A stretch of DNA of 64,000 nt from a virus. The stretch is taken from the UHGV virus genome UHGV-1366640. One strand, 5' to 3'. Below are positions 47 to 42,801 of the stretch, one piece after another. Under the pieces are notes generated by a model. It did no database searches. It saw only the letters and a list, made by a program, of their open reading frames with translations, and was not told the origin of the DNA. A program made the position numbers and the translations under genes. Positions within the stretch are counted from its first letter, which is position 1, and every line of letters starts with the position of its first letter.

Positions 47-81
47 TAAGAGTTAAATGAATATTTTGAGCGTTTATATTT
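47..81 (+). promoter_or_regulatory. Bipartite phage promoter, copy 1. Box 1 TAAGAGTT at 47-54, a 16-nt spacer, then box 2 CGTTTATA at 71-78. Lies upstream of the DNA polymerase gene.
   Basis: The same two boxes with an invariant 16-nt spacer recur 12 times in the window. All copies are on the + strand and sit 25-60 nt upstream of an RBS and start codon. Confidence 0.5.
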
Positions 82-115
82 GTGTAAGGAAAATTTATAT
101 TTAAGGAGATTATGT

Positions 116-3100
116 ATGATTTGTAATAATCAGGACTGTTCAAAATTTAAAGAAAATTGTAATATCCTTTCTCCGACTGGAGCAGAATTTCCAGATTTTT
201 ATTTTGTAGGACATGGAATTTCACAGGAAGAGATTAATAGTGGGATATTGTTTAATCCAGAGTCTTCAGATGGAAATGCACTTCTAAAATCTATCTTATC
301 AAGTTACGGAATTTTTGATCGTTCACGATTTGGAAAATTGACAGGCTGTGTTACTGAATATCGTAAATTTACAACAGAAGAACTTGAATTCTGTGCAAAT
401 AGGCTGTTATATGAGGATATTGTTAGATCAAATCCGAAGGTTCTTGTTTTGTTTGGAGCAAAAGTAGCAGAAGTTATTCTTGGAGATAAATTCATTTCAT
501 TATCATCACAGGGTGGAAGACTTCTTTCTTGTAAAATTCTTGGGAAAGAATTCAAGGTGATTTTGACATATTCTCCAGATTATGTTATATCATCAGGTAA
601 TGAAGATTCTGATGAAGAGAATCTCATATATACAAAGTTTGTAAATGATCTTATGTATGCATTGAAAGTTGGAAATGATGAAGTAGCTGATTTATCAAGA
701 AAAGATCTTGTAACAGCTCTGAATTTCGATGAGTTTGATGAGTATTGTAAGAGTCATATTGATAATTCTTCTATTGTTGCATATGATATTGAGACAAATG
801 CACAGCCTGTTCATTCTGCACAATTTAGAATTATTGGTTTTTCACTGAGTTCAAGCGTGAATTCAGGAGTCTATGTTGTTAGAAATTCACTTGAATATGT
901 TATACCGAATGAAGATTGGAAGAAGATTGAAGAACGACTTCTTGGAATATTGAAATCCAAAGAAAAGATTATTGTACATAATTCAATGTACGAAGTTCCA
1001 GCAACTCAAAATGTTTGGAATTATGAAATACAGAATTATGAAGACACTCTTGTTATGTCCAGACTTCTTCTTGGAGGTCGCTCTGGTGCAGGATTGAAAC
1101 TTCAGTGTCAGATTAATCTTGGATATCCTGAATGGGAAGCGGATCTTAATGACTATAAGGACGCTATTGATACATTACGAGTTATTATGAAACCAACACC
1201 TTCCGGGAAATCAAGAGAATGGTTTGATAAATTAGTTGAATTTGGAAATCTTCAAATGCTTGAAGAATATTGTGAAAAAGCAATAGAAGATGAGAAGAAT
1301 AATTTGGATGTCACTAATCTTTTCGAATTTGAGATTAAGGAAAAGTATAAGGATATAGAAAATAACAAACATGGTAAATGCGTGAAGGCAATTGAGTCAA
1401 TTAAGGATATTCTAAGGAAGTATTATGAGGATTCAGAATTTAATAAGATGTTATTCTCAGTCGGACTCGAAGTTATTTCTCTTGTTGAGTCTGGTAATTT
1501 TGGATTTCTTCCTTACAGTTCTATTCCAATGAAACTTCTTTCAAAATATGGTGCTATTGATGCAGTTGGTACATTTGAATTATACGGAGTGTTATCCAAA
1601 AGACTCACAGAAGAATCAACAGTAGATGTTGATCTTTGGAAGGGTTATGAAATAATGAAATCGCAGTTTGATGTTGCGATTTCTATGGAAATGAACGGAC
1701 TTTATTGGAACGATAAGGTTGCCACAGAAGAAAATACTTGGTTTAGAAAAGAAGCAGTTCAGTCAATAAAGAATTTATTTCTCAGTGGATTTCTTGATAA
1801 TAAACTTTTCGATAATGGAAAAGAAGAATGGACACGATATCTTTTAGAAAATAGTCCGGATGATATCATCATGGCACTTGGAGAAAAATTTGTTCCCTCT
1901 AAAAATGGTATTAAAAGAGAATCCGGTGGGAGAGAGATTCGATTTAATAAACTTCCAGAGATTTTCTCTGATTCATATTGGGAAAAACATAGAGATGCTG
2001 TTATATTTAACATGAAGAGAATGATTTTGGCTGACACTAATAAGTTAGATCATCTTAAATGGACTTGTGTTTATAATCCAAATTCTCCGAAACAGGAAGA
2101 TTTTCTGACATCAATTCTTGTGACTCCCGAGATAAAAATTGCAGCGATAATGTATTCCATAAAAATGTTGATGGATGAGCCATCATTTAAGCTTGAAAAT
2201 TATGGATCTGATGATGTTGACTTATTTTCTACGATATTAGATGCAAAGTCAATGAATGCTGCAAGAGCTGAATATAATGAATCAGATGAAGGAAAAGAAA
2301 ATCCTCTTCCTAAAATTACAAATAGAGAGATCTTTGAATCTTTTGCAAAAGTCATATCTGAGCCACGAGGATTTGGTGAAGATGTTAAGGAGATTATAAA
2401 ATTTGGTTCCGGTTATAGATTGACTGATGGTAGAGACGGAAGTATTATTCATCTGTCAGAATTATATAATCTTGCAGGGTATGACCCTGATCTTCCTGAG
2501 GATACATGGTCACCAGAGTTTTTCTTTTTATATAATTACAGAATCTATAAGAAATGTTTCAAAATGATCAGCACTTATATTGTTGGATCGAAAGTTGGTC
2601 GAGGAGCTGTTTGGGAAGTAAGTAGAGAAGATATCGATTCTAATTCAAAACTTCCAAGGAGATTGAATATCTATACAGGTTCTAAATCTGATGATAGAGA
2701 ATATATTATGCAGCCTTCTTATGGAGTTTGCACTGCAGGGAGTTTTAGATGGAAATCCGGACAGCACACAATTCCAGCAACATCTACCGTTAAGAATATT
2801 TACACATCAAGGTATAAGGGTGGTATCATAATGATGCCTGACTTTTCACAGCAGGAGCTTCGAGCAATGGCTGGTCTTTCAAGATGTCAGGCTCTTATAG
2901 ATGCATTTAGAAGTGGAGCGGATATTCATAAGCTGAACGCAAGTAAGATGTTTAATAAACCACTTGATGAAGTCACATCTCTTGAAAGAAGATATGCAAA
3001 ACAGTTTTCATTCTCAATTCTTTATGGAGCTACACCTGAAGGTGCTGGTAAAGATTATTTGAATGGAGATGTCGAAAGAGCAAGGGAAATTTTTGATAGC

Positions 3101-3772
3101 TTCTATGCAGCATATCCTGAAGTTAAGGATTGGATAAAGAAGAAGCACAAAGAAATGTTGTCAACAGGTCGTGTTTCTTGTGAAAATACAGGCATGTTCA
3201 TAAAACTTTCTGTGGATGATGCTCATGGAGATGTAGAAAAAGCAAAGAGGGAAGCACAGAATATGCCTTGTCAGTCATCATCTTCCAATATTGCCGGATA
3301 TATTCTTTCAAAGGTCAATAGATATATCAAAGATCATAATATGTGGACGAAAACAATTTTATTCATACACGATTCACTTGAATTTGATGTTCATCCTTCT
3401 GAATTCTTAAGATTTTCTGAATATCTTGGAAATGCACTTATAACAATCCCAGAAGAAGAGTTTGGTCTTCCTTGTAAGGCAGATCTTGCACTTGGACCTT
3501 CATTGGGTGAAGAACTGGAAGCATCTGATTTGAATCTATCTGAAGATAAGAATTCAGGCGAATTGACAATCGAAGGAGACATTGAATACTTTGATAAGTT
3601 GATACATCAGTTCAGACAGACCTATAAATTGGTAGAATATGAAGATATCGAAAAACCTGAAAATGTATACCTTCCTAAGAAAAGTATCTTTATGCCAAAA
3701 ACAACAGTATCAAAAAGATTTGGTACAACAACACAGAATATCAAACGTAGGGTTAAGTTGATCTATGAATAA
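116..3772 (+). CDS. Family-A DNA polymerase with an N-terminal UDG-like domain and a 3'-5' exonuclease domain.
   Basis: The true start is ATG 116 (MICNN...), 7 nt after the RBS AAGGAGA. The ORF-track start at 80 is an upstream in-frame extension. There is a UDG-family-4-like segment (FYFVGHGISQEE...GILFNPESSDGNALL) and an Exo I motif (YDIETNA). PolA motif A is DFSQQELR, motif B is RRYAKQFSFSILYG and motif C is IHDSLEFD. Confidence 0.85.
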   Translation: MICNNQDCSKFKENCNILSPTGAEFPDFYFVGHGISQEEINSGILFNPESSDGNALLKSILSSYGIFDRSRFGKLTGCVTEYRKFTTEELEFCANRLLYEDIVRSNPKVLVLFGAKVAEVILGDKFISLSSQGGRLLSCKILGKEFKVILTYSPDYVISSGNEDSDEENLIYTKFVNDLMYALKVGNDEVADLSRKDLVTALNFDEFDEYCKSHIDNSSIVAYDIETNAQPVHSAQFRIIGFSLSSSVNSGVYVVRNSLEYVIPNEDWKKIEERLLGILKSKEKIIVHNSMYEVPATQNVWNYEIQNYEDTLVMSRLLLGGRSGAGLKLQCQINLGYPEWEADLNDYKDAIDTLRVIMKPTPSGKSREWFDKLVEFGNLQMLEEYCEKAIEDEKNNLDVTNLFEFEIKEKYKDIENNKHGKCVKAIESIKDILRKYYEDSEFNKMLFSVGLEVISLVESGNFGFLPYSSIPMKLLSKYGAIDAVGTFELYGVLSKRLTEESTVDVDLWKGYEIMKSQFDVAISMEMNGLYWNDKVATEENTWFRKEAVQSIKNLFLSGFLDNKLFDNGKEEWTRYLLENSPDDIIMALGEKFVPSKNGIKRESGGREIRFNKLPEIFSDSYWEKHRDAVIFNMKRMILADTNKLDHLKWTCVYNPNSPKQEDFLTSILVTPEIKIAAIMYSIKMLMDEPSFKLENYGSDDVDLFSTILDAKSMNAARAEYNESDEGKENPLPKITNREIFESFAKVISEPRGFGEDVKEIIKFGSGYRLTDGRDGSIIHLSELYNLAGYDPDLPEDTWSPEFFFLYNYRIYKKCFKMISTYIVGSKVGRGAVWEVSREDIDSNSKLPRRLNIYTGSKSDDREYIMQPSYGVCTAGSFRWKSGQHTIPATSTVKNIYTSRYKGGIIMMPDFSQQELRAMAGLSRCQALIDAFRSGADIHKLNASKMFNKPLDEVTSLERRYAKQFSFSILYGATPEGAGKDYLNGDVERAREIFDSFYAAYPEVKDWIKKKHKEMLSTGRVSCENTGMFIKLSVDDAHGDVEKAKREAQNMPCQSSSSNIAGYILSKVNRYIKDHNMWTKTILFIHDSLEFDVHPSEFLRFSEYLGNALITIPEEEFGLPCKADLALGPSLGEELEASDLNLSEDKNSGELTIEGDIEYFDKLIHQFRQTYKLVEYEDIEKPENVYLPKKSIFMPKTTVSKRFGTTTQNIKRRVKLIYE

Positions 3773-3810
3773 GGCTGAGGAGTGCTCAGAAGCCACCAGA
3801 TAAAAGAATG

Positions 3811-3892: not shown

Positions 3893-3927
3893 TGAGAGTC
3901 TTTTGAATAAATTGAGCGTTTACATTT
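3893..3927 (+). promoter_or_regulatory. Bipartite phage promoter, copy 2. TGAGAGTC, a 16-nt spacer, then CGTTTACA.
   Basis: Motif family. The downstream leader and RBS (TTAATTGAAAAGGAGATACACAATTATGGAT) are nearly identical to those of copy 3. Confidence 0.5.
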
Positions 3928-3965
3928 ATGTAAGAAAATTTTAATTGAAAAGGAGATACACAATT

Positions 3966-4757
3966 ATGGATGAATATTTGAAAAAGAAATTCAAACAGCA
4001 GGAGAAAATCAAACAGGAGGATTATCATCTCAGAATTCTTCATGAATTGCATGATACATATTGTAAGAAGAATTCTGATTATGGAAATTCATTCTCAGAG
4101 CTCTATAAACAGTATGGCATCATTTCTCCAATGATAAAACTTGAAGATAAGATGTCAAGACTGAGATCTCTCATCCGTGATGAAAACAAGATACAGGTGA
4201 AAACTGAATCAATAGAAGATACTCTTATGGATCTTGCGAATTATGCAATTATGACAGTACAAGAACTTCGTGGAGATTATCTTGGAGACATTATGTTTGA
4301 TTTCGACTATTCGGTTCTTCCAAAGATTGTAGCTGTTGATTTTGATGGAACTTTGGTAAAAGGAGCAACATTCCCAGATATCGGAGATCTTAATCAGTTG
4401 CTCTATGAAGAGCTTACAAATGGAGAATATAAGGATTATAGGAAAATTCTTCTCACAAATAGGTCGGGTTCAACTCTTGCAGATGCAATTAATTGGTGTG
4501 AAGAACATAATCTTCATTTCGATGCTGTTAATGATAACATTGAAGAGGTGAAGGATGCTCTCTGTGGAGGTCCTATCATGAAGCCATGGTTTACAGTTTT
4601 GATTGATGACAAAGCAATGTCAATTGATGAATTCGAGGAAAAATATACTGGCAAGAAGATGTATAATGATATTGAGGATATAAGTTCTACAGAATCTAAG
4701 ATAGACTGGCATAATGGTGCTCCAATTCCTTGTAATAGAAATGAAGAAATCTCTTAA
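3966..4757 (+). CDS. HAD-superfamily hydrolase, a putative nucleotidase or phosphatase, with an N-terminal domain of unknown function.
   Basis: The real start is ATG 3966 (MDEYLKK), 8 nt after GGAGA. HAD motif I is VAVDFDGTLV and a C-terminal motif IV is LIDDKA. The ORF-track N-terminus MKRRYTIM is read-through of the conserved leader. Confidence 0.5.
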   Translation: MDEYLKKKFKQQEKIKQEDYHLRILHELHDTYCKKNSDYGNSFSELYKQYGIISPMIKLEDKMSRLRSLIRDENKIQVKTESIEDTLMDLANYAIMTVQELRGDYLGDIMFDFDYSVLPKIVAVDFDGTLVKGATFPDIGDLNQLLYEELTNGEYKDYRKILLTNRSGSTLADAINWCEEHNLHFDAVNDNIEEVKDALCGGPIMKPWFTVLIDDKAMSIDEFEEKYTGKKMYNDIEDISSTESKIDWHNGAPIPCNRNEEIS

Positions 4758-4760
4758 ATT

Positions 4761-4795
4761 TGAGAGTTTTTCTTCATCTAACAGCGTTTACACTT
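4761..4795 (+). promoter_or_regulatory. Bipartite phage promoter, copy 3. TGAGAGTT, a 16-nt spacer, then CGTTTACA.
   Basis: Motif family, with a leader nearly identical to that of copy 2. Confidence 0.5.
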
Positions 4796-4832
4796 ATGTA
4801 AGAAAATTTAATTGAAAAGGAGATACACAATT

Positions 4833-5702
4833 ATGGATTTTCAAATCATAAAAACCGCTCCAACCTTCAAAACAGATTGGGCGGTCGGCTGGTACAAGAA
4901 TGCCAATGATGCTTGGCAGAATCTGTATTATGGTCTTAATGTAGATGGAGATATTAGATCTCCGAGAGGATTGAAGGTCAAAGAAACTCTTGGATGTGAC
5001 ATCTACATAATGAATCCTATGGATAATTTGGTGTACAACAGTTTCTATCCAGCATCACCTTATTATATAGCTCAAGAATATGAGTGGTATCATTCATATA
5101 ATAATGATGTTGAGTCAATCGCAAAATTTGCTCCATTTTGGAGAAAAATTGCTAATCCTGATGGAACTGTTAATAGCAATTATGGTTGCTATATATTCAA
5201 ACTCTATGAAGATGGTACGAGTGAATGGACACGATTGGTTGATTTATTAAGAAAGGATCCTGATAGTCGACAAGCAATCCTCCAGATTCCTATTACACCA
5301 TTTAAGAATACAAAAGATCTAACTTGTACATCAAGCTTACAATTTTTTGTGAGAGATAATAAAGTGTTTATGACAACATACATGAGATCAAATGATCTTT
5401 GTAAGGGTTTTAGAAATGATATTCCATTTTTCACATCATTGCAGATTGATCTTGCAAAAGAACTTGATCTTGAAGTTGGTTGGTACCGTCATGTTGTGGG
5501 TAATCTTCATATCTATGAACCTGATTTTATTGAAAATAGAATAGGTGAATTTAGATTTGAATGTATATCAGAATATAAATATCCTGACTCTGTGAGAGAA
5601 TATGACATTAAGCATGATTTTAATATTCTTAGAAAAAGAAGTGTTGATGGAGTTCAGAATTCAATTTTGAAATATATGGCAGAAAATTTTAATAGAAAGT
5701 GA
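4833..5702 (+). CDS. Thymidylate-synthase-family enzyme, a putative deoxypyrimidine (dCMP-type) hydroxymethylase.
   Basis: The real start is ATG 4833 (MDFQII). It has a ThyA-like core: LRKDPDSRQAIL (compare ThyA LKNDPDSRRII), a Cys in LTCTSSLQFFV (ThyA APCHAFFQFYV), and YMRSND (ThyA YQRSCD). In GFRNDIPFF, aligned to ThyA GLPFNIASY, my alignment places an Asp at the ThyA Asn177 position, the dCMP-hydroxymethylase-type substitution. That alignment is uncertain by one residue. Confidence 0.55.
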   Translation: MDFQIIKTAPTFKTDWAVGWYKNANDAWQNLYYGLNVDGDIRSPRGLKVKETLGCDIYIMNPMDNLVYNSFYPASPYYIAQEYEWYHSYNNDVESIAKFAPFWRKIANPDGTVNSNYGCYIFKLYEDGTSEWTRLVDLLRKDPDSRQAILQIPITPFKNTKDLTCTSSLQFFVRDNKVFMTTYMRSNDLCKGFRNDIPFFTSLQIDLAKELDLEVGWYRHVVGNLHIYEPDFIENRIGEFRFECISEYKYPDSVREYDIKHDFNILRKRSVDGVQNSILKYMAENFNRK

Positions 5703-5717
5703 GGAAGGTTTTACACA

Positions 5718-7253
5718 ATGAAAGCTATAAGATCGCAATTACACATGACAGCGTTGTATGCTCTGAAAAACACATCTTGTAATAAGCTTGCAGTCGGTGC
5801 ATCATTTGTACCAAATGGACATTTTCCGACTGTTTATGCATGTAATCGTAACGATGATTATTCTTGTAAAGAGAATGATAATTGTTATAAGGCAAGTGTC
5901 ACTGGAATTTATGAGTCATCTGAGGAAACAAGGAAATATTGTAAATCGATTCATGCAGAAATCAATCTTATCAACAAATTAAAAGAGATGTATCCTCATA
6001 AGGAAAGAAATCTTCTTTCTGATGGAACAGTATATGTTACAAGATATCCTTGTCTTGAATGTGCAAGAAATCTTATTCTGTATGGTGCTAAGAAGGTTGT
6101 CTATTGTGGAAAACAGGAAATCTCAGAAGAAGTAAAATCACTTTTTTCTCTTGTTAAAGACCTTGAAGTCGTTTGGGATCCTGAACTTGATTATGAATTC
6201 ACAAATGAAGATGAATATCCATGGTGGACAGACAAGTTTTACAACGAAGCATATGAAATCGTAAAAGATCGTCAAGCTCCATTTACAATAATTTCATATA
6301 ATAATCCTACATTGACAACATTGAAGCAGCTTTCCTTTGATAAGATGACAAAAGAGAATGGATGGAAGGGCATTGTATTTGTCAGAGAATCTCAGAGAGA
6401 GATGTATGAAGAAGCAACAATACAATATCCGACAGTTGAAGTTGTGTCATTTCCTGATGAACTGATTTCAAACGCAGGAGCAACACGAAGAGCAACACAA
6501 AAATGGATGTATATTCATGGGTATAATATTGCATTTCAGGCGGATGACGATGTAGGCAATATGGGATATCTTGTAAAGGGAAAAACAGCAGATGGCAGAG
6601 AGAAATCTGATTATGTTTCCGGGATTAATGGGAATATCGGAAGAGTCCTTGCAATGTGGCAGATTGCTATGGAAAAGACAATATCGGTTAATCCTAAAGT
6701 TGTTCAGTCTTGTGCGTCTGTTCAAGGTCTTGCCTTTGGTCTTAAAGAATGTCAAAAGGACATGTCATTGATATTTGGTACAGGATCTCAGGTTCAGGTT
6801 ATTTGCATGAATGTGAAGACACTCGTAGAAAATGATCTTTTTTATGCAGATAATAAAGATTGTGGACTCGATGACCTTGATATGACAGCAAGATGTATAA
6901 AATCAGGATTTCAGATAGCAAGATTTTCTTGGTTAATTTATCATTGTCGTCCAATGGGTGTAAATAGCCAATATGTTTGGTCAGAAGAACTTCATAGAGT
7001 AATCCCAGGAGAGCAGTTGAGAGCAAGATTCCAAGACTCTCAGACAAAACTCAAAGCACGGCATGGAGATGTTCCTTGGATTGCTTTTGAAGAAAAGAGA
7101 GGACTTCCTCAAACATCTTTTAGACCAATGAGAATTCGTAAGTGGCAGAAAGAGCAAGGATTCTATGGAGATTATGATAACTACAAATTTGATATATGGA
7201 AAGACGGTGAATTACTGAATGAAGCAAAAACTGGATATTCAAAAGAAATATGA
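5718..7253 (+). CDS. dCMP/cytidine deaminase domain fused to a roughly 360-aa C-terminal domain of unknown function.
   Basis: The N-terminal zinc-deaminase signature is HAEINLI ... PCLECARNL. The C-terminal two-thirds, including QADDDVGN, carries no motif I recognise. The start follows an RBS, GAGGAAGG. Confidence 0.6.
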   Translation: MKAIRSQLHMTALYALKNTSCNKLAVGASFVPNGHFPTVYACNRNDDYSCKENDNCYKASVTGIYESSEETRKYCKSIHAEINLINKLKEMYPHKERNLLSDGTVYVTRYPCLECARNLILYGAKKVVYCGKQEISEEVKSLFSLVKDLEVVWDPELDYEFTNEDEYPWWTDKFYNEAYEIVKDRQAPFTIISYNNPTLTTLKQLSFDKMTKENGWKGIVFVRESQREMYEEATIQYPTVEVVSFPDELISNAGATRRATQKWMYIHGYNIAFQADDDVGNMGYLVKGKTADGREKSDYVSGINGNIGRVLAMWQIAMEKTISVNPKVVQSCASVQGLAFGLKECQKDMSLIFGTGSQVQVICMNVKTLVENDLFYADNKDCGLDDLDMTARCIKSGFQIARFSWLIYHCRPMGVNSQYVWSEELHRVIPGEQLRARFQDSQTKLKARHGDVPWIAFEEKRGLPQTSFRPMRIRKWQKEQGFYGDYDNYKFDIWKDGELLNEAKTGYSKEI

Positions 7254-8433
7254 TTACATTATTGTGGGAGCAGGTCTTGCTGGTGCGACTTGTGCAAGGC
7301 TCCTCGCAGATGAGGGAAAGACAATTTTGATCATTGATTCAAGAGATCATACTGGTGGAAATTGTTATTCTGAACGAATGGATGGGATTGAGGTTCATCG
7401 TTATGGACCTCACATCTTCCACACAGACTCTGAGAAGATTTGGAACTTTGTAAATCGATATACAGTGTTTAATGACTACATAAATTCTCCAATCGCAGAA
7501 TACAATGGGCGATATTACAATTTACCAATCAATATGAACACATTGATACAGATTTATCCTAATGTAGTACCATCTCCAGATGCTATGACAGCAGAAATTT
7601 TGAAAGATATTCCTGAAGAGTATTTGGAATTCAGGAACGGACACAAGAAAGCAACCAATTTAGAAGAACATATAATTTCACAAGTTGGTACGAAGATCTA
7701 TAACACATTTATCAAAGATTATACAGAAAAACAATGGGGAAAAAGCTGCTCAGAATTATCTCCAGAGATCATAAAGAGAATTCCTATTAGAATGACTTTT
7801 GATAACAATTATTTTTCAGATAGATTTCAGGGGATTCCAAAATATGGATATCAAGATCTTTTTAATAAAATGTTGATAGATAATAACATAGATATTATTC
7901 TTGAATACAATGTTCAAGAAGAGGATCTTTCATATTTATTAGAACGGACGAGACAGTTTATCATATATACAGGAGATCTTAATGAAATTGTCCCTGAAAA
8001 TCTTCAAAGAATTCCTTACAGAAGTCTTAGATTTGATTTCCAGACTTATGATGCTTCTACAGATAAGTCGTTACCAAAAACAGCTGTCATTAATCATACT
8101 GGAAGCAATTCAAGGTACACGAGATCTGTTGATTACAAATATTTTGACAAAAACTGTCATCAAAGAAATTCAGTAATTGTACATGAAAAATCTGTTGAGT
8201 GGTACAAAGGATGGTTAATTCCATATTATCCAATTTTATCAGAAGATGCTCATTCTAAATATATGGATGCAAGAGATTATTTAAGATCTAAGTATTCACG
8301 ATTAAGATTCTGTGGAAGAATTGCAACTTATCGATATCTTGATATGGATGATACAATTGATAATGCATTCACTTGCGTCAATAACCTGAAATATGATTAT
8401 GTGAGGTGTGAAGAGTCCAGTGAAACGATTTAA
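7219..8433 (+). CDS. glf: UDP-galactopyranose mutase (Glf-like).
   Basis: The whole N-terminal half matches the UGM pattern: YDYIIVGAGLAGATCA, LIIDSRDHTGGNCYSE, VHRYGPHIFHT, YNGRYYNLPINMNTL and EKQWG. The start overlaps the previous gene by 35 nt and has GGTGA 8 nt upstream. Confidence 0.8.
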   Translation: MKQKLDIQKKYDYIIVGAGLAGATCARLLADEGKTILIIDSRDHTGGNCYSERMDGIEVHRYGPHIFHTDSEKIWNFVNRYTVFNDYINSPIAEYNGRYYNLPINMNTLIQIYPNVVPSPDAMTAEILKDIPEEYLEFRNGHKKATNLEEHIISQVGTKIYNTFIKDYTEKQWGKSCSELSPEIIKRIPIRMTFDNNYFSDRFQGIPKYGYQDLFNKMLIDNNIDIILEYNVQEEDLSYLLERTRQFIIYTGDLNEIVPENLQRIPYRSLRFDFQTYDASTDKSLPKTAVINHTGSNSRYTRSVDYKYFDKNCHQRNSVIVHEKSVEWYKGWLIPYYPILSEDAHSKYMDARDYLRSKYSRLRFCGRIATYRYLDMDDTIDNAFTCVNNLKYDYVRCEESSETI

Positions 8434-9550
8434 TCTATTGTATGTTTCAATTTCGTCTTTTTGGAAAACAGCATGTATCAAACCTTATTTGCATCATGAT
8501 GTTATTTTCAAATATCTCAATAGGATGATGCCTATTGATATTCACATTGCTCTTCCAATGCCTGGAACAAATTATCTTTGTCAATACCTTGAAACAGGTC
8601 GAGATTCCAGGATAATGAAGAGTTGGAAATCATTGCCATTCCATGTATATCCAGATTTGTATACAGGAGAAGTTGATGGAATGGTTATAAATGGGAGTGG
8701 TACATCAAATGAGCATGTTTGTGCAGATGGTACTGTTTTGTCGAAAGATATTATCGCAGATTATATTGTGAATCGAGCACTTTACTGCATGATGAATAAT
8801 CTTCCGATAATCTTATTTGATCCTGATAATTTTGTTTGTTCGCTTGATGGAGATAGCTCCAAACATCGTTGGATCAAAGATAAAACAAATTACACAGCTC
8901 GTGTTTATGAGCTTTGTAAAGACTATGAAAAGTTCACACTTGCAAGTCCAATGGAGTCTGGTACAGATGTACATCATCCAAGTGAGATCTTTGTTCCATA
9001 TACATTGGATAAGGAAATCAATGTGCCGATAAAACCTCTTTCAGAGAGACAGTATTTTACAAAATATGTTGGAAGCAATTATTACAGAGATCATTTTGTA
9101 CAATACTTCAATGAATGTTCAAAGATTGGGAAAACCCTTGTTGCAGGAGCAGGATGGACTCAATATTATGAATCTTATCCAGATATTGAGTGGAAACATA
9201 AATTCCCTCTTACAGCAGAAAATATTTATGATTTCTATAGTGATTCACAGATTGGTCTTTATGGATCTCCTCCTGCACTTGCTGATCGTGGACATTATAC
9301 ATTAAGAGTAAGAGACTTCTATGACAGTGGTGTGTTTGTTGTTCCAGAAGCAAAAGAGCATTATATAGAATCTATTTGTATCTCAGAGTATTTTTATACA
9401 ATTGAACATCTTCTCAATGGAATAAAATTTGGAGAAGGTCTGTCCGATGATGATTATGAAAATATTGTTAGAAAACAGAGAGAAGTCCTGATTAAGAAAT
9501 TTGATGGAGAACAGTATGCAGAGATCTTTGCAGAAAAATTATCAAAATAA
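8408..9550 (+). CDS. Hypothetical protein whose start is uncertain (GTG 8408 or an internal ATG near 8528). A possible partner enzyme of the sugar pathway.
   Basis: Long open frame. Its position between the UGM and the GT-like genes is the only functional hint. I recognise no motif in it. Confidence 0.35.
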   Translation: MKSPVKRFNLLYVSISSFWKTACIKPYLHHDVIFKYLNRMMPIDIHIALPMPGTNYLCQYLETGRDSRIMKSWKSLPFHVYPDLYTGEVDGMVINGSGTSNEHVCADGTVLSKDIIADYIVNRALYCMMNNLPIILFDPDNFVCSLDGDSSKHRWIKDKTNYTARVYELCKDYEKFTLASPMESGTDVHHPSEIFVPYTLDKEINVPIKPLSERQYFTKYVGSNYYRDHFVQYFNECSKIGKTLVAGAGWTQYYESYPDIEWKHKFPLTAENIYDFYSDSQIGLYGSPPALADRGHYTLRVRDFYDSGVFVVPEAKEHYIESICISEYFYTIEHLLNGIKFGEGLSDDDYENIVRKQREVLIKKFDGEQYAEIFAEKLSK

Positions 9551-9566
9551 CGAAAGGAAATTGTTC

Positions 9567-10880
9567 ATGAATAACAGATATTCTAAATTGACATTTATTC
9601 GACAGTGTAATCCAATATATGAAGATTACTGTAAGAAATACTCAACTGTCAGATTCTATTCAGAGACAATTGTCTCTCTTGCAAAAAATCTTGAGATTCC
9701 AGAGATAGAGATTCTCTATTTTAATGAGACCTATCCGAGCGATACTCATAGCGGAAAGGAAACTGAAGCAAGAATTTGGTTTGAAAATCTGAAGAAGTCT
9801 GATGATTCTGTGAATGAAATAGATTATCCAACATTTTCAATGTATAAGTCTGCCAAAAGAAATGATATCAAATTAGATGTTAAAAACATTTCTTGCCATA
9901 CAGAGACAAATTTTGAAAATTCACTTGTTGTAATCTCATTTATGACAGATACACCAGCGATTCATAAAAAGTATTTTAACAAAACAATCATACCAATTGT
10001 AAATCAGTCAGCAGGATTTATTTATCTTGCATCTGACAATGAATATTCAGGTTATGCATATAGAAAAGATGAAATAGTGATAAATTGTTTGGAATTTATT
10101 GGTGATTATCTTCCTGAAGATTTCATAAGACAGATGAAATGCATTATCATGACAGAGTCTAACTGCCTTGGTCTTAGAAATTCCTTAATTCAAAAATTTC
10201 ATTGTCCTGTTTTCTACTGTCCGATGATAATAGATCCACAAAATCTAAGATTTAATACAAAAACATACAAACAATTCACTGAAGAGACCGAGAATAAGAT
10301 AGCAATGCTCAAAAATTTGAATACATTTATGATCTATCAAGATTTCTTTGAAACAATAAGAGATCATGGAGTTGTATTTGAATCAAGCATGCCAAATACT
10401 CGAAAGAAATATGCACCTTTCTGTGAAAAGTATGGTCTGCAGTACAAGAACGCAAGATTTTGGAAAATGGAAGAGTTTGAGCATAAAATCTCTCCATATA
10501 GAGTTTTCTTAGGGATGTCAACGATTGGCAGCAGCCGATTTACTTCAAAAATCTTAGAAGGAACAAATGCTGGATGTATTGTAATCAATCCCTACATAGA
10601 TCTCGAAGGCATTGGATTCTCTGCAGAGGAATATCCGATCTGTAATTCCACATTGCAAGATTCAGGGATCCTTGATGTTCTTACGATAGACAGATGGACT
10701 CAAGAAGAATGCTCGAAGTCTCTTGCTGATGCTGCAAATTCATTTCTTAATTATGATTATGATGAATATACGAATAGACTGCTTCATCAAGTAACATTCA
10801 TCAAAAAGTATTTTCTGGAGGATAGTCCATGTGTTCAAGAATGCTTACAAAAGATCATCCCTTTTCTTAAGGAAAATTAA
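9567..10880 (+). CDS. Hypothetical protein, possibly a GT-B-like glycosyltransferase.
   Basis: Start ATG 9567 (MNNRYSK) after GAAAGGAAA. The C-terminal segment VFLGMSTIGSSRFTSKILEGTNAGCIVIN resembles the GT-B C-terminal nucleotide-sugar-binding region. The evidence is weak. Confidence 0.3.
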   Translation: MNNRYSKLTFIRQCNPIYEDYCKKYSTVRFYSETIVSLAKNLEIPEIEILYFNETYPSDTHSGKETEARIWFENLKKSDDSVNEIDYPTFSMYKSAKRNDIKLDVKNISCHTETNFENSLVVISFMTDTPAIHKKYFNKTIIPIVNQSAGFIYLASDNEYSGYAYRKDEIVINCLEFIGDYLPEDFIRQMKCIIMTESNCLGLRNSLIQKFHCPVFYCPMIIDPQNLRFNTKTYKQFTEETENKIAMLKNLNTFMIYQDFFETIRDHGVVFESSMPNTRKKYAPFCEKYGLQYKNARFWKMEEFEHKISPYRVFLGMSTIGSSRFTSKILEGTNAGCIVINPYIDLEGIGFSAEEYPICNSTLQDSGILDVLTIDRWTQEECSKSLADAANSFLNYDYDEYTNRLLHQVTFIKKYFLEDSPCVQECLQKIIPFLKEN

Positions 10881-10910
10881 TTTGAATATTCTAATAAAAG
10901 GATAATTCCA

Positions 10911-10945
10911 AAGGAGTTATCCTTTTCTTTTTAGCGTTTATACTA
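10911..10945 (+). promoter_or_regulatory. Bipartite phage promoter, copy 4. AAGGAGTT, a 16-nt spacer, then CGTTTATA.
   Basis: Motif family. The downstream sequence TACTATTGTAAATACTATTTTTGAAAGGA is shared with copy 5. Confidence 0.45.
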
Positions 10946-11038
10946 TTGTAAATACTATTTTTGAAAGGAAACAGTCATTAACAACGACAAATAAAAATAG
11001 CCGAAAGGTATAAAGAAGTAAAGAAAGAGGTAATAAAA

Positions 11039-11170
11039 ATGAAAGATTATGCGCTTATTATAAAGACACCAGGAGGAAGTGTAAGTGATATATTGTATTT
11101 TGATACACACGAAGAAGCATACGAGGAAATGCAATTTTGCAAAAACATTCTACAGCGACAGGAACTTTGA
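11039..11170 (+). CDS. Small hypothetical protein of 43 aa.
   Basis: ATG 11039 follows AGAGG, immediately downstream of promoter copy 4. It is below the ORF-track cutoff. Its position and RBS are the only support. Confidence 0.25.
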   Translation: MKDYALIIKTPGGSVSDILYFDTHEEAYEEMQFCKNILQRQEL

Positions 11171-11203
11171 ATATGAATTGAAAAAGGAGTGTTAACAATC
11201 AAT

Positions 11204-11662
11204 ATGATTATTAGAAGACTGTATGAAATGTCAAGATCTCTTAAGGAGATCAAATTGGAATTATATAATCACTCTGAACAGATCAGAGAGAATCTAATGA
11301 AAATTTTCCTACTAAGAGATTGTTCAGCAAAACATCATTGGATTTCAGAACTCTTTGGAAATTGTCATGATGTTAAGAAATGTAATGGATCAAACAAATA
11401 TCCAAAAGAGTCTGTAATCTTACAGGAAATTTGGAAATCTTGGGAAGATAGTTATTCAGATAAACTTGAAAAATATATTGTTAATCTTCAAAATTCTGAG
11501 AAAGATGTTAAATTCCCAGATGAGTTCTCTTCAAAGAATCTCTATGATTTTATGAAAGATTATTGTAAATGGTTGTCCAAAATTCTATCAAAAGATGGTG
11601 TTGTTACATTTCCAGAAGTTGAGCGAGAAGTCAACCAACTTCTGCAGAAATATGAAATATGA
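11204..11662 (+). CDS. Hypothetical protein.
   Basis: Start ATG 11204 (MIIRRLYE), 9 nt after AAGGAG. Confidence 0.5.
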   Translation: MIIRRLYEMSRSLKEIKLELYNHSEQIRENLMKIFLLRDCSAKHHWISELFGNCHDVKKCNGSNKYPKESVILQEIWKSWEDSYSDKLEKYIVNLQNSEKDVKFPDEFSSKNLYDFMKDYCKWLSKILSKDGVVTFPEVEREVNQLLQKYEI

Positions 11663-11687
11663 ATTGTTAAGGGTAATTCTCTTCAAA

Positions 11688-11722: not shown

Positions 11723-11756
11723 TTGTAAATACTATTTTTGAAAGGAGATCATTAAG

Positions 11757-28590: not shown

Positions 28591-28591
28591 T

Positions 28592-30962: not shown

Positions 30963-30968
30963 ATTTGG

Positions 30969-31346: not shown

Positions 31347-31424
31347 GAAAGGATGTCTGAAAATGATTATCAATGAATTCGTAAATGAGAAGAAGATCTT
31401 TCGACTATTACTTATCATGAGCTG

Positions 31425-31649
31425 ATGAATAAGCTCGCTGCAATTAATAGAAAGTTCAATTTCGCAGAAATAGTCCTTTCAAAACTTCCCACAAGGAATA
31501 TCATACCTGAATTTGCAGTGAACTGGAAATCAAGTCCTGGAGCTGTCAGTGTGAAGACTGTTCAGGATTGTATCAAGGAACTAAATGTTGTTGTAAAAGA
31601 AGTTGAAAATCTTAATAAAAAGTATACAGGAAAATATTTTGAAGATTGA
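31425..31649 (+). CDS. Hypothetical small protein.
   Basis: ORF. Confidence 0.3.
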   Translation: MNKLAAINRKFNFAEIVLSKLPTRNIIPEFAVNWKSSPGAVSVKTVQDCIKELNVVVKEVENLNKKYTGKYFED

Positions 31650-31668
31650 TTAAAGAGGAGTTGAGAAT

Positions 31669-31965
31669 ATGATTAGAGTGATTAAAGAATCTAATAATCT
31701 TAGTAGGAATGACTTAATCGATGAAATTGATAAATATTATAACAAGCCAGGCTATATAGGTGATTTATTTCAAAATTATAAAGGACCTAATATGAAATGG
31801 TATAAATTTGTAGAAAAAGAAATAAAGAAGATAACTGGAGAATTTGTAAATACCCTTCCGGATGATGATCCAGATGAAGGTTTTTATAGCAATTTAAGTA
31901 CATCTGAATTAAAGGCTGTGTTAGATGATATTAATGCTACCATAGCCAAAGCAACAAAAAGATGA
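31669..31965 (+). CDS. Hypothetical protein.
   Basis: ORF after GGAGTTGAGAATATG. Confidence 0.4.
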   Translation: MIRVIKESNNLSRNDLIDEIDKYYNKPGYIGDLFQNYKGPNMKWYKFVEKEIKKITGEFVNTLPDDDPDEGFYSNLSTSELKAVLDDINATIAKATKR

Positions 31966-32211
31966 TAAAATAACTGTTGAATTGACAGGTCAGCAACTGA
32001 ATTTAATCAAAGATGCAATGAAAATGTGGTCAAATCCCAGTTTTTCGAAATCTCGTGAAGAGTCAGATATTGCAAAAGATATTTTGAAGAAACTAAAGTA
32101 AGAAACATTAAGACCGAACTTGCTTGAAAATCTTCAGATATTGAACGAATCTCAGACAGATGGGAAGACAAATAAATATGTATGATTAGGAAAGGGGTAT
32201 TAATTGGTAAA

Positions 32212-32742
32212 ATGATTATAAATGAATCTAAAAAACTTAATGAAGGTAATGGAGTAAGCAGTAAGATCCCTGCAATACTTGATAATTTCCTTCAGGATGT
32301 AGCTCAGATGACAGGTCAGATTTCTTATAAGGATATTGTTGAGTTAGGGAAGGATAAGAAATTATCAGTTAAGCTTGATAAGATTAAGAAGTTAAAGAAC
32401 TCTTGGGAAGATGTTGCAGATGATTATGATGATGATGCTATGATGGATGTAGGTAGGAAAATCAAAAGGATCATCAATGAATCTGCACAGGATAGTTTGT
32501 ATTTTGATAACACTGTTAAGTATGACAATGATGATATCGCTGCACAGATTTCAATCAATTATGAAGGTGAATCTAATGCAATCACTGGTTATTACAAGTT
32601 GCTTCCATTTCTCAAATCTGTTGGTGATCAAGGAGCGATCGATCAAATCGTAGAAATAATCAGTGATGAAAAGAATCATCAGCAGATACTCAAAGATCTC
32701 TCTATGAAGTATGATGGCGGAATTCCTGTTGCCAAAGATTAA
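32212..32742 (+). CDS. Hypothetical protein.
   Basis: ATG 32212 (MIINESK) after AAAGGGG. Confidence 0.4.
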   Translation: MIINESKKLNEGNGVSSKIPAILDNFLQDVAQMTGQISYKDIVELGKDKKLSVKLDKIKKLKNSWEDVADDYDDDAMMDVGRKIKRIINESAQDSLYFDNTVKYDNDDIAAQISINYEGESNAITGYYKLLPFLKSVGDQGAIDQIVEIISDEKNHQQILKDLSMKYDGGIPVAKD

Positions 32743-32951
32743 TAAATAAAATGATCGGAGTCGTATGATATGAAAACACCATGTGTGTACTGTAACAAAA
32801 GAAGTGCTGGTTGTCATTCATCTTGTGATCTTTATAAAGAATTCAAAGATGTTCTTACGAAGATTGCGAAGATGAAAGAAGATTATTATGCTTCTTTTCC
32901 AACAGCTGGTTTGAAGAATTTCCCGCAAAGATAAGAGAGGAATTTTGAAAG

Positions 32952-33218
32952 ATGATAATTCATAGATTGAATGAAGGAACTAACAATGAATATCAGACAT
33001 TTCATGTCTACAGAAGTAACTGGGAAGAAACTGGTCAGGCAATCAAATTTGCTTATGAGCGAGATGATGGTGTGAGAATGCCAAATATGATCGCTATTCC
33101 AAAATCTCAATTGATTCAGGGTGAAACGAATCCTGTTACTGGCATAACAAGATTCCGTATCAAGAAATGGATTCTTAAAAAGAACATAAGTGATGGATTT
33201 AGAATAATTGAGTGGTAG
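32952..33218 (+). CDS. Hypothetical protein.
   Basis: ORF. Confidence 0.35.
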   Translation: MIIHRLNEGTNNEYQTFHVYRSNWEETGQAIKFAYERDDGVRMPNMIAIPKSQLIQGETNPVTGITRFRIKKWILKKNISDGFRIIEW

Positions 33219-33231
33219 ATTGTGAGGTTAG

Positions 33232-33516
33232 TTGTATAATGATATTATATTGCGAGAAAGAGTTGCTGATTCTCGGGTGATTCCAATCACTCAATTGAAA
33301 GTTGGGGATTACTTCAAAATGAGCGAAAATGGTTCTATAAAGGGACCATCATATAAGGTTGTTAGTATTGACAGAAATTCAAAGGGAAGTCAAGATACTT
33401 ACATCACTTACAAAAATCGGCAAGGAGAGCAGTATGCTTTTAGTTATGATACAACTGAACCAGATGGTGGTAGATATGTAACTTGGGTAAAGTTGGTAGA
33501 TGATAGAATTCGTTGA
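33232..33516 (+). CDS. Hypothetical protein with an uncertain start.
   Basis: ORF. Confidence 0.3.
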   Translation: MYNDIILRERVADSRVIPITQLKVGDYFKMSENGSIKGPSYKVVSIDRNSKGSQDTYITYKNRQGEQYAFSYDTTEPDGGRYVTWVKLVDDRIR

Positions 33517-33549
33517 TAAACAAATGTATTTTATTGAGGAGAATGAAAG

Positions 33550-33777
33550 ATGATACTAAATGAGTCAATTCAAACAATCTCAATTGATGAAGATAAATTA
33601 GAAAAACAGATGAGAAAGCATCGTTATGATGATGATGCTTTCTTTGAATTTATACAGGATCGTTATGGTCTTACAGATGGACATGATTATCAGCTTGGAA
33701 ACGATGGTTTGACCTTCACATTCTATAATCATGCTCCAAAGTCAAAGATTCAAAGATTCAGAAGTGAGCTTGCATAG
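33550..33777 (+). CDS. Hypothetical protein.
   Basis: ORF after GGAGAATGAAAGATG. Confidence 0.35.
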   Translation: MILNESIQTISIDEDKLEKQMRKHRYDDDAFFEFIQDRYGLTDGHDYQLGNDGLTFTFYNHAPKSKIQRFRSELA

Positions 33778-33792
33778 AGAGGGGAGCTTGTT

Positions 33793-34488
33793 ATGTTAGA
33801 TAAGATCTATAAGACTCTCAAGCTCTTGAGTGAGCTTATAATCGTATGTACCCCACTGATTGCTGCTACATATTATACAGTTCTTAAGAAGTGGAAAAAG
33901 AGATCTCAAGAAATGAAAAACATTGATCTTGAAAAGAAAGGTCAGGAATTTAGATCTTTCAAGCATCAGCAGACAATCGAATCTATGAATACTCTCAAAT
34001 ATATTGTAAATATGTTTAGAGATAAGTCTTGCGCAGAGCTTGTTTGTTTTTGTCAATTAGAAAACGGAACTCTGGCAGACTCTCAGCTGAGTAATATGTA
34101 TATGACCTGTCTTGTTGAGTCTAACAGATATTCTGAGATTCCTTCAATCTCAGATAAGATACAGAGACTTCCTGTCCAAAAGATATTATCTCTTCTCACT
34201 ACAATGAATTCTCTTTCTTCAGCAATATCTGTTCAGTTGCCTCTTGAAATTCAGAAAGATGCTTCTCGTATTTGTGAAGACAGTAGTCCTTGGGCATTTC
34301 ATGTTGTTAAAAACTCTCATGGCTATATTATTGGATATATAATTTTTCGATATAATGATCTGGAAGGAATGGATGATAAAATCTTTGATGAAATAGCTCT
34401 TCATGCAGAATGTTCTGCTGCAGTTGAAGCTGAGCTTTTTAGATTTGAGAAGATGATCAGTCATAAGAGATTTGAATTGAAAATTTGA
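33793..34488 (+). CDS. Hypothetical protein with an N-terminal transmembrane segment.
   Basis: Hydrophobic N-terminus LLSELIIVCTPLIAATYYTVL. Confidence 0.4.
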   Translation: MLDKIYKTLKLLSELIIVCTPLIAATYYTVLKKWKKRSQEMKNIDLEKKGQEFRSFKHQQTIESMNTLKYIVNMFRDKSCAELVCFCQLENGTLADSQLSNMYMTCLVESNRYSEIPSISDKIQRLPVQKILSLLTTMNSLSSAISVQLPLEIQKDASRICEDSSPWAFHVVKNSHGYIIGYIIFRYNDLEGMDDKIFDEIALHAECSAAVEAELFRFEKMISHKRFELKI

Positions 34489-34545
34489 ATTTCTTTGTCT
34501 TTTGAAAGATCTTAAATATTTGTATGAAGGGAGAGAAGGATCAAT

Positions 34546-42226: not shown

Positions 42227-42270
42227 TGAATTACCCTCTGAGAAGCCTTCAGAGCTTCTCAGATTAAAGA

Positions 42271-42315
42271 AGTGAGTCAGGGTAGTATAACTATACCCCT
42301 ACTCACTTTCTTTCA
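42271..42315 (+). terminator. Rho-independent terminator, member of the repeat family. Stem AGTGAGTCAGGGTA.../...TACCCCTACTCACT, followed by a T-run.
   Basis: Inverted repeat preceded by the CTCAGA motif. Confidence 0.55.
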
Positions 42316-42356
42316 ATACAAAGCCTTGTAGATAATCCTATGAAAGGAGAATGTTT

Positions 42357-42749
42357 ATGAATGATGTGATTATTGCCTTTGTAGATCATCTTCTTGTTCC
42401 GATTATTATCACAGTGATTGTTCCTTTTCTTATCTCTCTTATCAGACAGAGAGTTGCTAAACTTGAGAATGATGAAGCAAGATCATTATTTGATGGTGCA
42501 CTATATGAACTTCAGGGTGCTGTTTCAACAGCTGTATCTGCTGTGTCACAGACATATGTTGATGCTCTTAAGAAAGAGAAAAAGTTTTCTACAGAATCTC
42601 AGAAAGAAGCATTCAGGCAGGCATATCAAAAGTCAATCAGTTTACTTTCAACTGAGACTTTGAATTATCTTAAGACAAAATTCTCTGATGAAGACTTTGA
42701 AGAACTCATTGGGAGTTATATAGAATCAATAATTTACAAAAACAAATAA
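42357..42749 (+). CDS. Putative holin or membrane protein.
   Basis: ATG 42357, 6 nt after AAAGGAGA. A single strong N-terminal transmembrane helix, IIAFVDHLLVPIIITVIVPFLISLI, followed by a charged C-terminus. Confidence 0.4.
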   Translation: MNDVIIAFVDHLLVPIIITVIVPFLISLIRQRVAKLENDEARSLFDGALYELQGAVSTAVSAVSQTYVDALKKEKKFSTESQKEAFRQAYQKSISLLSTETLNYLKTKFSDEDFEELIGSYIESIIYKNK

Positions 42750-42766
42750 AAATAAACCGTTAAATT

Positions 42767-42801
42767 TAAGAGTTTTCTATATGTATACACCGTTTATAGT
42801 A
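42767..42801 (+). promoter_or_regulatory. Bipartite phage promoter, copy 12, with the AAACCGTTAAATTTAAGAGTT 21-mer. Lies upstream of the head module.
   Basis: Motif family. Confidence 0.5.

Follow-up and report, generated by a model that had tools for sequence, protein, structure and literature searches.

What are the near-identical two-part sequences that recur between the genes of the viral genome UHGV-1366640, and which protein reads them? We address these questions in a 64,000-nucleotide (nt) stretch of this genome, given as one strand, 5' to 3', and referred to here as the window; it is that of a phage of a low-GC Gram-positive host. Each sequence consists of a hexamer, box 1, and, 16 nt further on, an octamer, box 2 (CGTTTATA). 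An initial annotation of the window took these sequences for promoters of a phage-specific class and assigned them to the sigma-70-family protein encoded at 27337–28086. The phage-specific class, and a sigma-type reader for it, hold up in our analysis; the assignment to that particular protein is doubtful.

The sequence AGAGTT-N16-CGTTTAYA has nine exact matches in the window, all on the + strand, and none in 100 dinucleotide-preserving shuffles. Allowing up to two mismatches brings in three more copies with the same extended context, at 3895 (AGAGTC), 10913 (GGAGTT) and 28131 (GGAGTG), and completes a set whose box 1 elements start at 49, 3895, 4763, 10913, 11690, 16416, 19747, 23717, 26245, 28131, 29875 and 42769. 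A 48-nt position weight matrix (PWM) built from the 12 sites scores them at 43–58 bits (28–52 bits when each is left out in turn); the best non-member site in the 64 kb scores 1.3 bits on the + strand and 1.9 bits on the − strand. The number of copies in the window is exactly 12, with no tail of weaker sites, and the spacer is 16 nt in every one. Count, strand and spacing are thus as first described, and so is the extended 21-mer AAACCGTTAAATTTAAGAGTT, which three copies (19747, 29875 and 42769) carry. The two-box pattern needs amendment in other respects: box 1 is not an invariant AGAGTT, the general form being RGAGTK-N16-CGTTTAYA, and the conserved block is longer than the two boxes (ttaaATttaAGAGTTtT...AG CGTTTATAcTtnTGTAAa). 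Downstream of box 2, the bases yTnnTGTAAg are conserved as well.

The long open reading frames (ORFs) of the window all lie on the + strand, so that the copies stand on the coding strand, and the intergenic placement originally reported was confirmed for all 12: every copy falls within the gaps that make up 9.9% of the window, with no member inside a gene or on the − strand. The layout is that of a generic sigma-70-family promoter, with a fixed distance between two boxes and a sense-oriented, non-coding position, and the conserved TGTAAG sits where a sigma-70-type start would be expected, downstream of a −10-like box. In eight of the 12 copies the start codon follows box 2 by 37–45 nt, in keeping with the earlier placement 25–60 nt upstream of a ribosome-binding site. 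That placement fails for the other four, among which are longer leaders of 93 nt (before tRNAs), 192 nt (copy 28131) and 219 nt (copy 26245, before the sigma operon). The 21 kb of structural genes downstream of 42769 contain no copy. We infer promoter action for these 12 sites, as candidate members of a phage-specific class, together with the start position and the reader discussed below; what the sequences themselves show is the sites and their placement, their conservation across a clade and the clade-specific form of box 1. The searchable literature yielded no account of the motif, and the promoter class is previously undescribed.

How widely, then, is the motif shared? No close DNA relative of the window was found among deposited phages; among cultured phages, Bacillus SP-15, Listeria LIS04 and Bacillus HSE3 come nearest, with 30–35% identity in PolA and portal. 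A search with the portal protein returned a large family of relatives (37–67% identity), which were sampled by portal-centred look-ups, a profile scan of IMG/VR, a walk along one contig, and use of the promoter itself as an anchor, in all some 165 kb of uncultured relatives and 20–33% of each genome. The motif is conserved in every relative examined, over a range of portal identity of 30–67% and of GC content of 28–42%, and what stays the same is box 2, its distance of 16 nt from box 1 and the TGTAAG further downstream (NODE_140, L169, L122, L124/L016, a 142-kb IMG/VR contig, L171, SP-15, LIS04 and HSE3). In these genomes CGTTTATA is repeated between genes on the coding strand, is followed by yTTgTG(t)aa, and is preceded 16 nt upstream by a hexamer that is specific to the clade. 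The spacer is 16 nt in nearly all of the sites, with a 1-nt shift of register only in the NODE_140 clade. The exact octamer is over-represented 3–10x on the coding strand, and occurs at or below expectation on the other, in every genome.

Box 1, on the other hand, changes from clade to clade. It is (A/T)AGAGTT in the window and in L119; TAGAGTT, CGGAGTT or CGGAGTG in the clade with 46% portal identity (L016, L124); (A/C)GGAG(C/T)AAAT in the 37–38% clade (the 142-kb IMG/VR contig IMGVR_UViG_3300010283_000005, with at least 12 sites, and L171); AGCGTT(A/G/T) or GGCGAAA in the 66–67% clade (NODE_140, with 10 sites in 40 kb, and L169); and (A/T)GGATTA in the 62% clade (L122). L119 is an 11-kb contig with ~91% DNA identity to positions 18.5–28.7 kb of the window. 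It has five copies of the motif, four at orthologous positions and one before an extra 131-aa gene, and the substitutions that separate it from the window spare both boxes and are concentrated immediately 3' of box 2. The motif was not found in two phage contigs binned with metagenome-assembled genomes (26–29% portal identity). A scan of IMG/VR with a 14-base version gave only single chance matches among the matches listed, a scan of a metagenome collection with a 20-base version gave one contig, unrelated, and single-protein searches of IMG/VR for relatives of the window sigma and PolA found none. From the sequences compared, the best explanation is that the motif class goes back to the ancestor of a deep clade of Firmicute myoviruses with T4-like heads, a family-A DNA polymerase and thymidine-hypermodification genes, a clade that on this explanation includes the Thornevirus SP-15 and LIS04, HSE3 and many uncultured relatives. 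One of the latter, NODE_140 (a 66% relative, 119.5 kb, ENA ERZ15610154), carries genes for NrdD and NrdG as well as several tRNA genes in a block, both sets behind promoter copies (L230, 689–5208 and 5700–8700); the NrdD and NrdG genes point to an anaerobic host for that clade.

The three cultured phages, which grow on B. subtilis (SP-15), Listeria (LIS04) and B. cereus (HSE3), carry the motif genome-wide in the form (A/T)GGCTC(T/G)-16-CGT(T/C)TATA-cTTgTGtaa. Copies precede arrays of small genes and genes for replication and nucleotide metabolism, and none occurs in the capsid, neck and sheath operons, a distribution that the window shares. Orientation follows the genes: leftward genes in SP-15 and LIS04 have the motif on the minus strand, and in 90 kb of HSE3 the octamer occurs 27 times on the + strand and twice on the −, where about 3 are expected per strand. 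The three phages also share a family of sigma factors resembling the extracytoplasmic-function (ECF) group (SP15_078, LIS04_95 and gp103, with a paralogue, e.g. HSE3 gp001; 39–51% identity), which has no detectable similarity to the sigma of the window.

These observations bear on the identity of the reader. In the explanation that we favour, a sigma-type factor with two DNA-reading domains would direct RNA polymerase (RNAP) to the sites. One domain would read the frozen, −10-like octamer CGTTTATA, and transcription would start ~9 nt past it, inside the conserved TGTAAG; the other would read the −35-like hexamer, held exactly 16 nt upstream, whose sequence appears to have been switched between clades. 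A two-domain sigma that was encoded by the phage and co-evolved with its sites would leave just this, a frozen −10 with a clade-specific −35. ECF-type promoters are typically marked by ‘CGT’ in the −10 element and by a rigid 16-nt spacer, and phages of three host genera have both boxes and an ECF-like sigma in common. The reader would most likely be a clade-conserved phage sigma of the ECF-like SP15_078 family. If so, its gene in this phage would lie outside the window, and the sigma at 27337–28086 would be lineage-restricted cargo, expressed from one of these promoters. Synteny allows for this. In the cultured phages the conserved ECF-like gene lies ~20 kb upstream of PolA, where it heads a topoisomerase/helicase/primase module; the window, which opens with PolA, encodes neither a helicase nor a primase, and a further 34 kb of the 98-kb source contig are outside it. 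An SP15_078-type orthologue elsewhere in the source genome is therefore plausible, and we put a clade-conserved reader encoded outside the window at slightly less than evenly balanced.

Several points weigh against this explanation. Searches with phmmer, hidden Markov models (HMMs) and hhalign found no SP15_078-type protein in the window or in the ~165 kb of uncultured relatives, sampling at which a universal gene would be missed with a chance of roughly 0.3. Every sigma gene of SP-15, LIS04 and HSE3 is itself preceded by the motif, and a host-type promoter before HSE3 gp001 was not found, which leaves the first onset of transcription unexplained; with motif-driven sigma genes and no host-type seed, there is room for a host-encoded or virion-borne reader. 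SP15_078 is only marginally sigma-like by Pfam (E = 0.003), and in all members of the clade the transcription starts are placed from sequence.

The sigma gene of the window itself (27337–28086, + strand, 249 aa) encodes a diverged SigB/F/G-like protein that is a candidate reader and, more likely, cargo. It matches Pfam Sigma70_r2 (1e-9), PHROG 351 (3e-33) and the generic sigma-70 model of NCBIfam (64 bits against a cutoff of 43), and has an intact region 2, a region 4.2 helix-turn-helix and a helical model with a predicted local distance difference test score (pLDDT) of 77. Among specific families it matches TIGR02980 (SigBFG, 2.9e-16) and TIGR02885 (SigF, 6e-12), far below the curated cutoffs (60 versus 234 bits), and its best match in the PDB is sigma-F, 1L0O. 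By best similarity it would be a sporulation-like auxiliary sigma of the kind found in phages. Such SigF-like sigmas are dispensable in SP10 and SPO1, where other sigmas run the transcription programmes, and sigmas as diverged as this one have little effect on host sporulation genes (PMC9429907). Its gene is the third of a cassette, after a 116-aa ORF and a SleB-like hydrolase, with copy 26245 before it and the terminator-promoter 28131 after it; the cassette is non-syntenic and flanked by promoter copies, in the manner of cargo genes. HSE3 likewise has sporulation-type cargo (gp017 ‘sigma-E’ and SpoIIID) behind a motif copy. The leader of the cassette, 219 nt long, holds a sigma-A-like candidate with an extended −10, TTGAAG-17-TGaTAAAAT (26292–26320), which is partly conserved in L119 and at chance level.

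The distribution of this sigma is narrow. L119 has a homologue with 81% identity. An exhaustive HMMER search of 1.84 billion cluster representatives returned its own cluster only and then matches of ≤65 bits with 27–39% identity, in the same data in which portal relatives are abundant; an HMM search over the ~165 kb of relatives found L119 only, a result that is weak alone at this sampling of each genome; and Listeria-phage records, hence LIS04, gave no match. A patchy spread is supported at that depth of sampling, the gene being present in the window and L119 only, with no intermediate orthologues. Its nearest traceable homologues are in unrelated phages without box 2 (including P0054, P0057, P0059, P0060 and P0062), and a search with an alignment of sigmas yielded 31 sigma loci, none on the contig of a relative and none with box 2. 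Two of the near homologues in unrelated phages lie in suggestive company, one (L224, 728–1890) beside a Spo0A_C-domain protein and LuxS, and the other (L228, 1871–3537) beside a second sigma gene, which is consistent with sigmas akin to this one often being part of host-manipulation modules.

Could this protein nevertheless be the reader, as the initial annotation proposed? It would, with host core RNAP, read AGAGTT through region 4.2 and CGTTTATA through region 2, and drive 12 units, its own operon included, by positive feedback, having replaced the ECF-like sigma of the cultured relatives. No other sigma was found within the 64 kb; its intact domains and confident helical model are those of a structurally complete protein; the AGAGTT form of box 1 occurs together with a SigF-like sigma in both the window and L119; the weak sigma-A-like site at 26292–26320 could supply seed transcription of the operon; and its divergence from SigB/F/G (60 versus 234 bits; PMC9429907) makes a phage-directed role plausible. 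However, the motif is spread far more widely than the lineage of this sigma, which has no orthologues in the protein sets of relatives and none of intermediate similarity among the cluster representatives (the next match being at 65 bits), and the cultured phages, with the same box 2 and spacing, carry an ECF-like sigma from a different sigma-70 group, so that one and the same octamer would have had to be reached independently by two unrelated sigma-2 domains. Likewise, box 1 has the form RGAGTW in L016/L124 and in the 142-kb contig, whose sampled parts show no SigF-like sigma, its homologues elsewhere are in phages that lack box 2, the gene stands in a non-syntenic three-gene cassette between promoter copies and behind one of them, and the proposed seed site is at chance level. 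We consider this model unlikely, if quite conceivable, and the protein is probably a passenger rather than the reader. A broader version of the same idea has the −35 rewritten genome-wide at least five times (GGCTC, AGAGTT/GGAGTT, GGAGYA, GGCGAA/AGCGTT and GGATTA) while the −10 stayed frozen and served nearly all non-structural transcription, the sigma genes included, with a SigF-like sigma replacing the ECF-like one in the lineage of the window; as a whole we find it improbable.

A different possibility is a reader that is not made after infection, be it a host alternative sigma, host RNAP with a host activator, or a phage protein carried in the virion, and that would be active from the start of infection. 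This would suit SP-15, LIS04 and HSE3, in which the motif precedes essentially every non-late unit (small, early-looking arrays, leftward blocks and the sigma genes themselves) and in which no host-type seed promoter was found. Box 2 contains a TATAnT hexamer, and it resembles the −10 of Bacillus ECF promoters, that of B. subtilis sigma-W being TGAAAC-N16-CGTATA. But the same box 2 occurs across three host genera and in genomes of 28–42% GC whose phages probably infect more remote, anaerobic hosts (NODE_140 has NrdD/NrdG), the consensus of no known Firmicute sigma fits (the −35 lacks ‘AAC’, and TTGACA is missing), and box 1 differs between closely related phage clades, a switching that is easier to reconcile with co-evolution of a phage protein than with host factors. 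A reader of this kind is, in our view, rather unlikely. That the repeats are not promoters at all, but cassettes for termination or recombination, or places where a protein of replication or packaging binds, is highly improbable. It is true that six of the 12 lie on strong hairpins, four of them resembling intrinsic terminators, and that cassettes have been duplicated with their flanks (3895/4763 and 10913/11690/16416) and, in one case, gained or lost with a gene between the window and L119. Six copies, however, have no significant hairpin; wherever box 1 falls relative to the hairpin (3' arm, loop or outside), its distance to box 2 is always 16 nt; the orientation strictly tracks that of the genes, leftward ones in SP-15 and LIS04 included; the distance to the Shine-Dalgarno sequence and start codon is constant; and one copy precedes a tRNA pair. 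Because box 1 keeps its register with box 2 and not with the hairpin, it is not a by-product of terminators.

Other candidate readers were examined and set aside. Host sigma-A is unlikely: no TTGACA-like hexamer lies 16–18 nt from the TATAnT in box 2, AGAGTT is 20 nt away, and there is no TGn extension. Matches to the sigma-70 consensus occur at chance (98 versus 99.5 expected, and 26 versus 25.9), in agreement with the earlier remark that the motif is unlike that consensus. The would-be T−7 of the TATAyT hexamer is C in two L119 copies, and the conserved unit is an octamer starting with CG, not TATAAT. A phage-encoded RNAP is unlikely too: none of the frames contains a DFDGD-type motif, and the 647-, 781- and 665-aa ORFs match nothing in Pfam or PHROG. 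The small ORFs gave no PHROG matches to a T4 gp55-like or other regulator; a Bacteroidetes-type promoter (TAnnTTTG) was rejected on account of strong Shine-Dalgarno sites, Firmicute gene content and a poor fit in most copies; and host-type seed promoters before the sigma genes amounted to chance-level matches only.

How does this class compare with known systems? One of the closest parallels is SPO1, with gp28 for middle and gp33/gp34 for late genes, and its relatives such as SP10: these, too, are lytic Firmicute myoviruses with modified thymine and have phage-specific bipartite promoters unlike TTGACA/TATAAT, repeated before genes for replication and nucleotide metabolism. The SPO1 promoters are AGGAGA-N17/18-TTTNTTT (middle) and CGTTAGA-N18/19-GATATT (late), and RGAGTK-N16-CGTTTATA matches neither consensus. 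The family of the window phage is unrelated to the Herelleviridae, having a T4-type portal and capsid, and the candidate sigmas here are ECF-like or SigF-like, the best matches of the window sigma being SigF-type phage and bacterial sigmas. SPO1 gene 28 is transcribed from a host-type early promoter, unlike the sigma genes of this clade, which lie behind the motif itself. Genomes of the SPO1/SP10 type encode two dedicated sigmas and a third, sporulation-like one that is dispensable (PMC9429907), and HSE3 shows this same pattern of dedicated sigmas plus a sporulation-like one.

Promoters of ECF (group 4) sigmas, such as sigma-W, likewise combine a rigid 16-nt spacer with a −10 box that starts CGT and continues TA. 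CGT is invariant in all of the clades, and the sigma of the cultured relatives is ECF-like both in annotation and in sequence. Both boxes are needed in ECF promoters. Here, by contrast, the −35 lacks AAC (AGAGTT, GGAGTA, GGCTC, GGCGAA, GGATTA), the −10 is a longer invariant octamer, and the window sigma is group-3-like rather than ECF. The cassettes further recall the promoter-early stem-loop (PeSL) elements of T4-type phages, reportedly described by Arbiol et al. in 2010 (Genome Biol Evol), in which the promoters are said to be host sigma-70 early promoters. Both are modules of hairpin plus promoter between genes, duplicated with their leaders and tied to the gain and loss of small genes (the extra cassette of L119 and an orphan box 1 in the window); unlike in PeSLs, the promoters here are not of host sigma-70 type, and the hairpin is present in six of the 12 copies only. 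Finally, gp36 of phiEco32 is an ECF-like phage sigma with its own class of middle/late promoters, whose motif has one −10-like element and no fixed −35. A single diverged phage sigma redirecting host RNAP to a phage-specific motif repeated through the genome is the likeness; the Gram-negative host and the unrelated phage are the differences.

The motif defines a candidate transcription signal for a poorly studied but widespread group, comprising Thornevirus, HSE3 and many gut and bioreactor relatives with hypermodified thymine, and it would enable operon maps and predictions of gene timing in genomes whose genes are mostly ‘hypothetical’. The same signal is present in SP-15, which is grown on B. 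subtilis, and so the question of the reader is directly testable. A frozen −10 with a clade-specific −35 at rigid spacing is a clean natural system in which to study co-evolution of sigma region 4 with its DNA target, and a possible source of orthogonal promoter and sigma parts for Gram-positive synthetic biology; if the −35 had indeed been rewritten at least five times, the clade would offer a natural series of orthogonal sigma/promoter pairs. For annotation there is a caution as well: the proximity of a sigma gene to a phage-specific motif does not by itself make its product the reader.

The 12 copies, all on the + strand, differ in setting. The first (49–78; AGAGTT-16-CGTTTATA) precedes the UDG-PolA DNA polymerase gene, whose ATG is at 116, 37 nt after box 2. 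The second (3895–3924; AGAGTC-16-CGTTTACA), with a weak palindrome CTCTCAAATTTGAGAG overlapping box 1, precedes a gene at 3945–4757 whose product, initially called a HAD hydrolase, is instead a DUF1599 nucleotide-modification protein. The third (4763–4792; AGAGTT-16-CGTTTACA), with box 1 in the 3' arm of a hairpin (z score −3.0), precedes the operon of a thymidylate-synthase-like hydroxymethylase (4812–10880). In the next three copies, box 1 lies in the 3' arm of a terminator hairpin: 10913–10942 (GGAGTT-16-CGTTTATA; hairpin 10896–10926 with a T-run), which has downstream only a 43-aa ORF (11039–11170) and then a 157-aa ORF; 11690–11719 (hairpin 11669–11701, z −4.5), before a kinase-like gene (11757–12800); and 16416–16445 (hairpin 16396–16427, z −4.5), before the gene for an NAD-dependent DNA ligase (16485–18482). 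The seventh copy (19747–19776), with the 21-mer upstream and no significant hairpin, precedes an operon at 19817–23585 (GroES-like, HD, SSB and the N-terminal half of TerL), and the eighth (23717–23746) precedes tRNA-Pro and tRNA-Gln (23840–23995) and the C-terminal half of TerL; both are kept in L119. The ninth (26245–26274) heads the sigma cassette (26494–28086) and has a 13-bp hairpin (z −4.5) whose loop contains box 1. The tenth (28131–28160; GGAGTG-16-CGTTTATA) follows directly 3' of the sigma gene; its terminator hairpin (z −4.2), which has a T-run, includes box 1 in the 3' arm, and the next ORF starts at 28353. The last two, both with the 21-mer, precede a gene block at 29944–34488 (29875–29904) and the T4-type portal gene (42769–42798).

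Hairpin overlap is significant in six of the 12 copies (z −3.0 to −4.5 against shuffled controls) and in none of the others; in four of the six (10913, 11690, 16416 and 28131) a T-run follows the stem, as in intrinsic terminators. About half of the copies are thus fused to the hairpin or terminator of the upstream gene as compact terminator-promoter cassettes. Copies 3895 and 4763 form a duplicated pair with an identical leader down to the ATG; 10913, 11690 and 16416 form a second duplicated set, in which the 10913 cassette is a near-exact duplicate of that at 11690; and 19747, 29875 and 42769 have their upstream 21-mer in common. An orphan box 1 without box 2 (23585–23612, + strand; AATTTAAGAGTTATTTGATTGAATAGAC) is what remains of a promoter; L119 has it whole (5046), ahead of the extra 131-aa gene that the window lacks. 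A possible decayed or weak copy (34487–34516, + strand; GAATTT-16-ATCTTAAA, then TATTTGTATGAAGG; PWM −5) precedes the 647-aa ORF.

Besides those already named, the genes of the window include ones for a dUTPase, SbcCD, a prohead protease, a gp23-like capsid protein and a holin. The region 3945–12800 is a cluster of the thymidine-hypermodification type: the DUF1599 protein, the hydroxymethylase, a dCMP-deaminase-like protein, a UDP-galactopyranose-mutase-like flavoenzyme, two unknown ORFs and a kinase-like protein of the choline/aminoglycoside type. Its content suggests DNA with sugar-decorated hydroxymethyl-uracil, as in SP-15, and hypermodified DNA could have a bearing on the unusual character of the promoter. 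At 12801–12920 an apparent frame ends in ...SAIGNGWTVDVIAHIVKNIK*, a sequence similar to the motif at the C terminus of C5 cytosine methyltransferases; it may be what is left of a gene.

Two ORFs, at 22686–23585 (299 aa) and 24331–25725 (464 aa) with a gap at 23586–24330, appear to be the halves of a split large terminase. The halves align end to end with single genes of 777 aa in L122 and 633 aa in L171 (both Pfam MJ0330_N). Between them lie the orphan box 1, copy 23717 and the two tRNAs, to which L119 adds its promoter and 131-aa gene. The 299-aa half has weak matches to terminase (PHROG) and to intein splicing (Pfam), and the annotation of HSE3 places an ‘intein splicing region protein’ immediately before the terminase.

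Several non-coding regions and one long frame complete the picture. The ~700 nt at 29183–29874 hold many inverted repeats centred on AGATCT (GAGATCTC, GAAGATCTTC and others), a GC-rich run of alternating purines and pyrimidines (CGCGCGTGCATGCGCACACGCACGCATG) and CT-rich runs, and could be a replication origin or another cis-acting region. A second family of repeats, long hairpins (AAGAAAGTGAGTAAGGGTA...TACCCTGACTCACTTCTTT) flanked by the word GCTCTCAGAAGC, occurs at 18483–18586, 28545–28600 and 42227–42350, the last in the opposite arrangement, and also at ~3860 and ~28190, in gaps without the promoter motif. Directly 3' of the major capsid gene is a 363-nt non-coding region of mixed composition (48109–48471) with no match in Rfam; the corresponding position holds a promoter copy in NODE_140 and L169. 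An apparent long continuous frame (61068–64000), tape-measure-like and rich in Ala/Gly/Ser repeats, runs off the end of the window.

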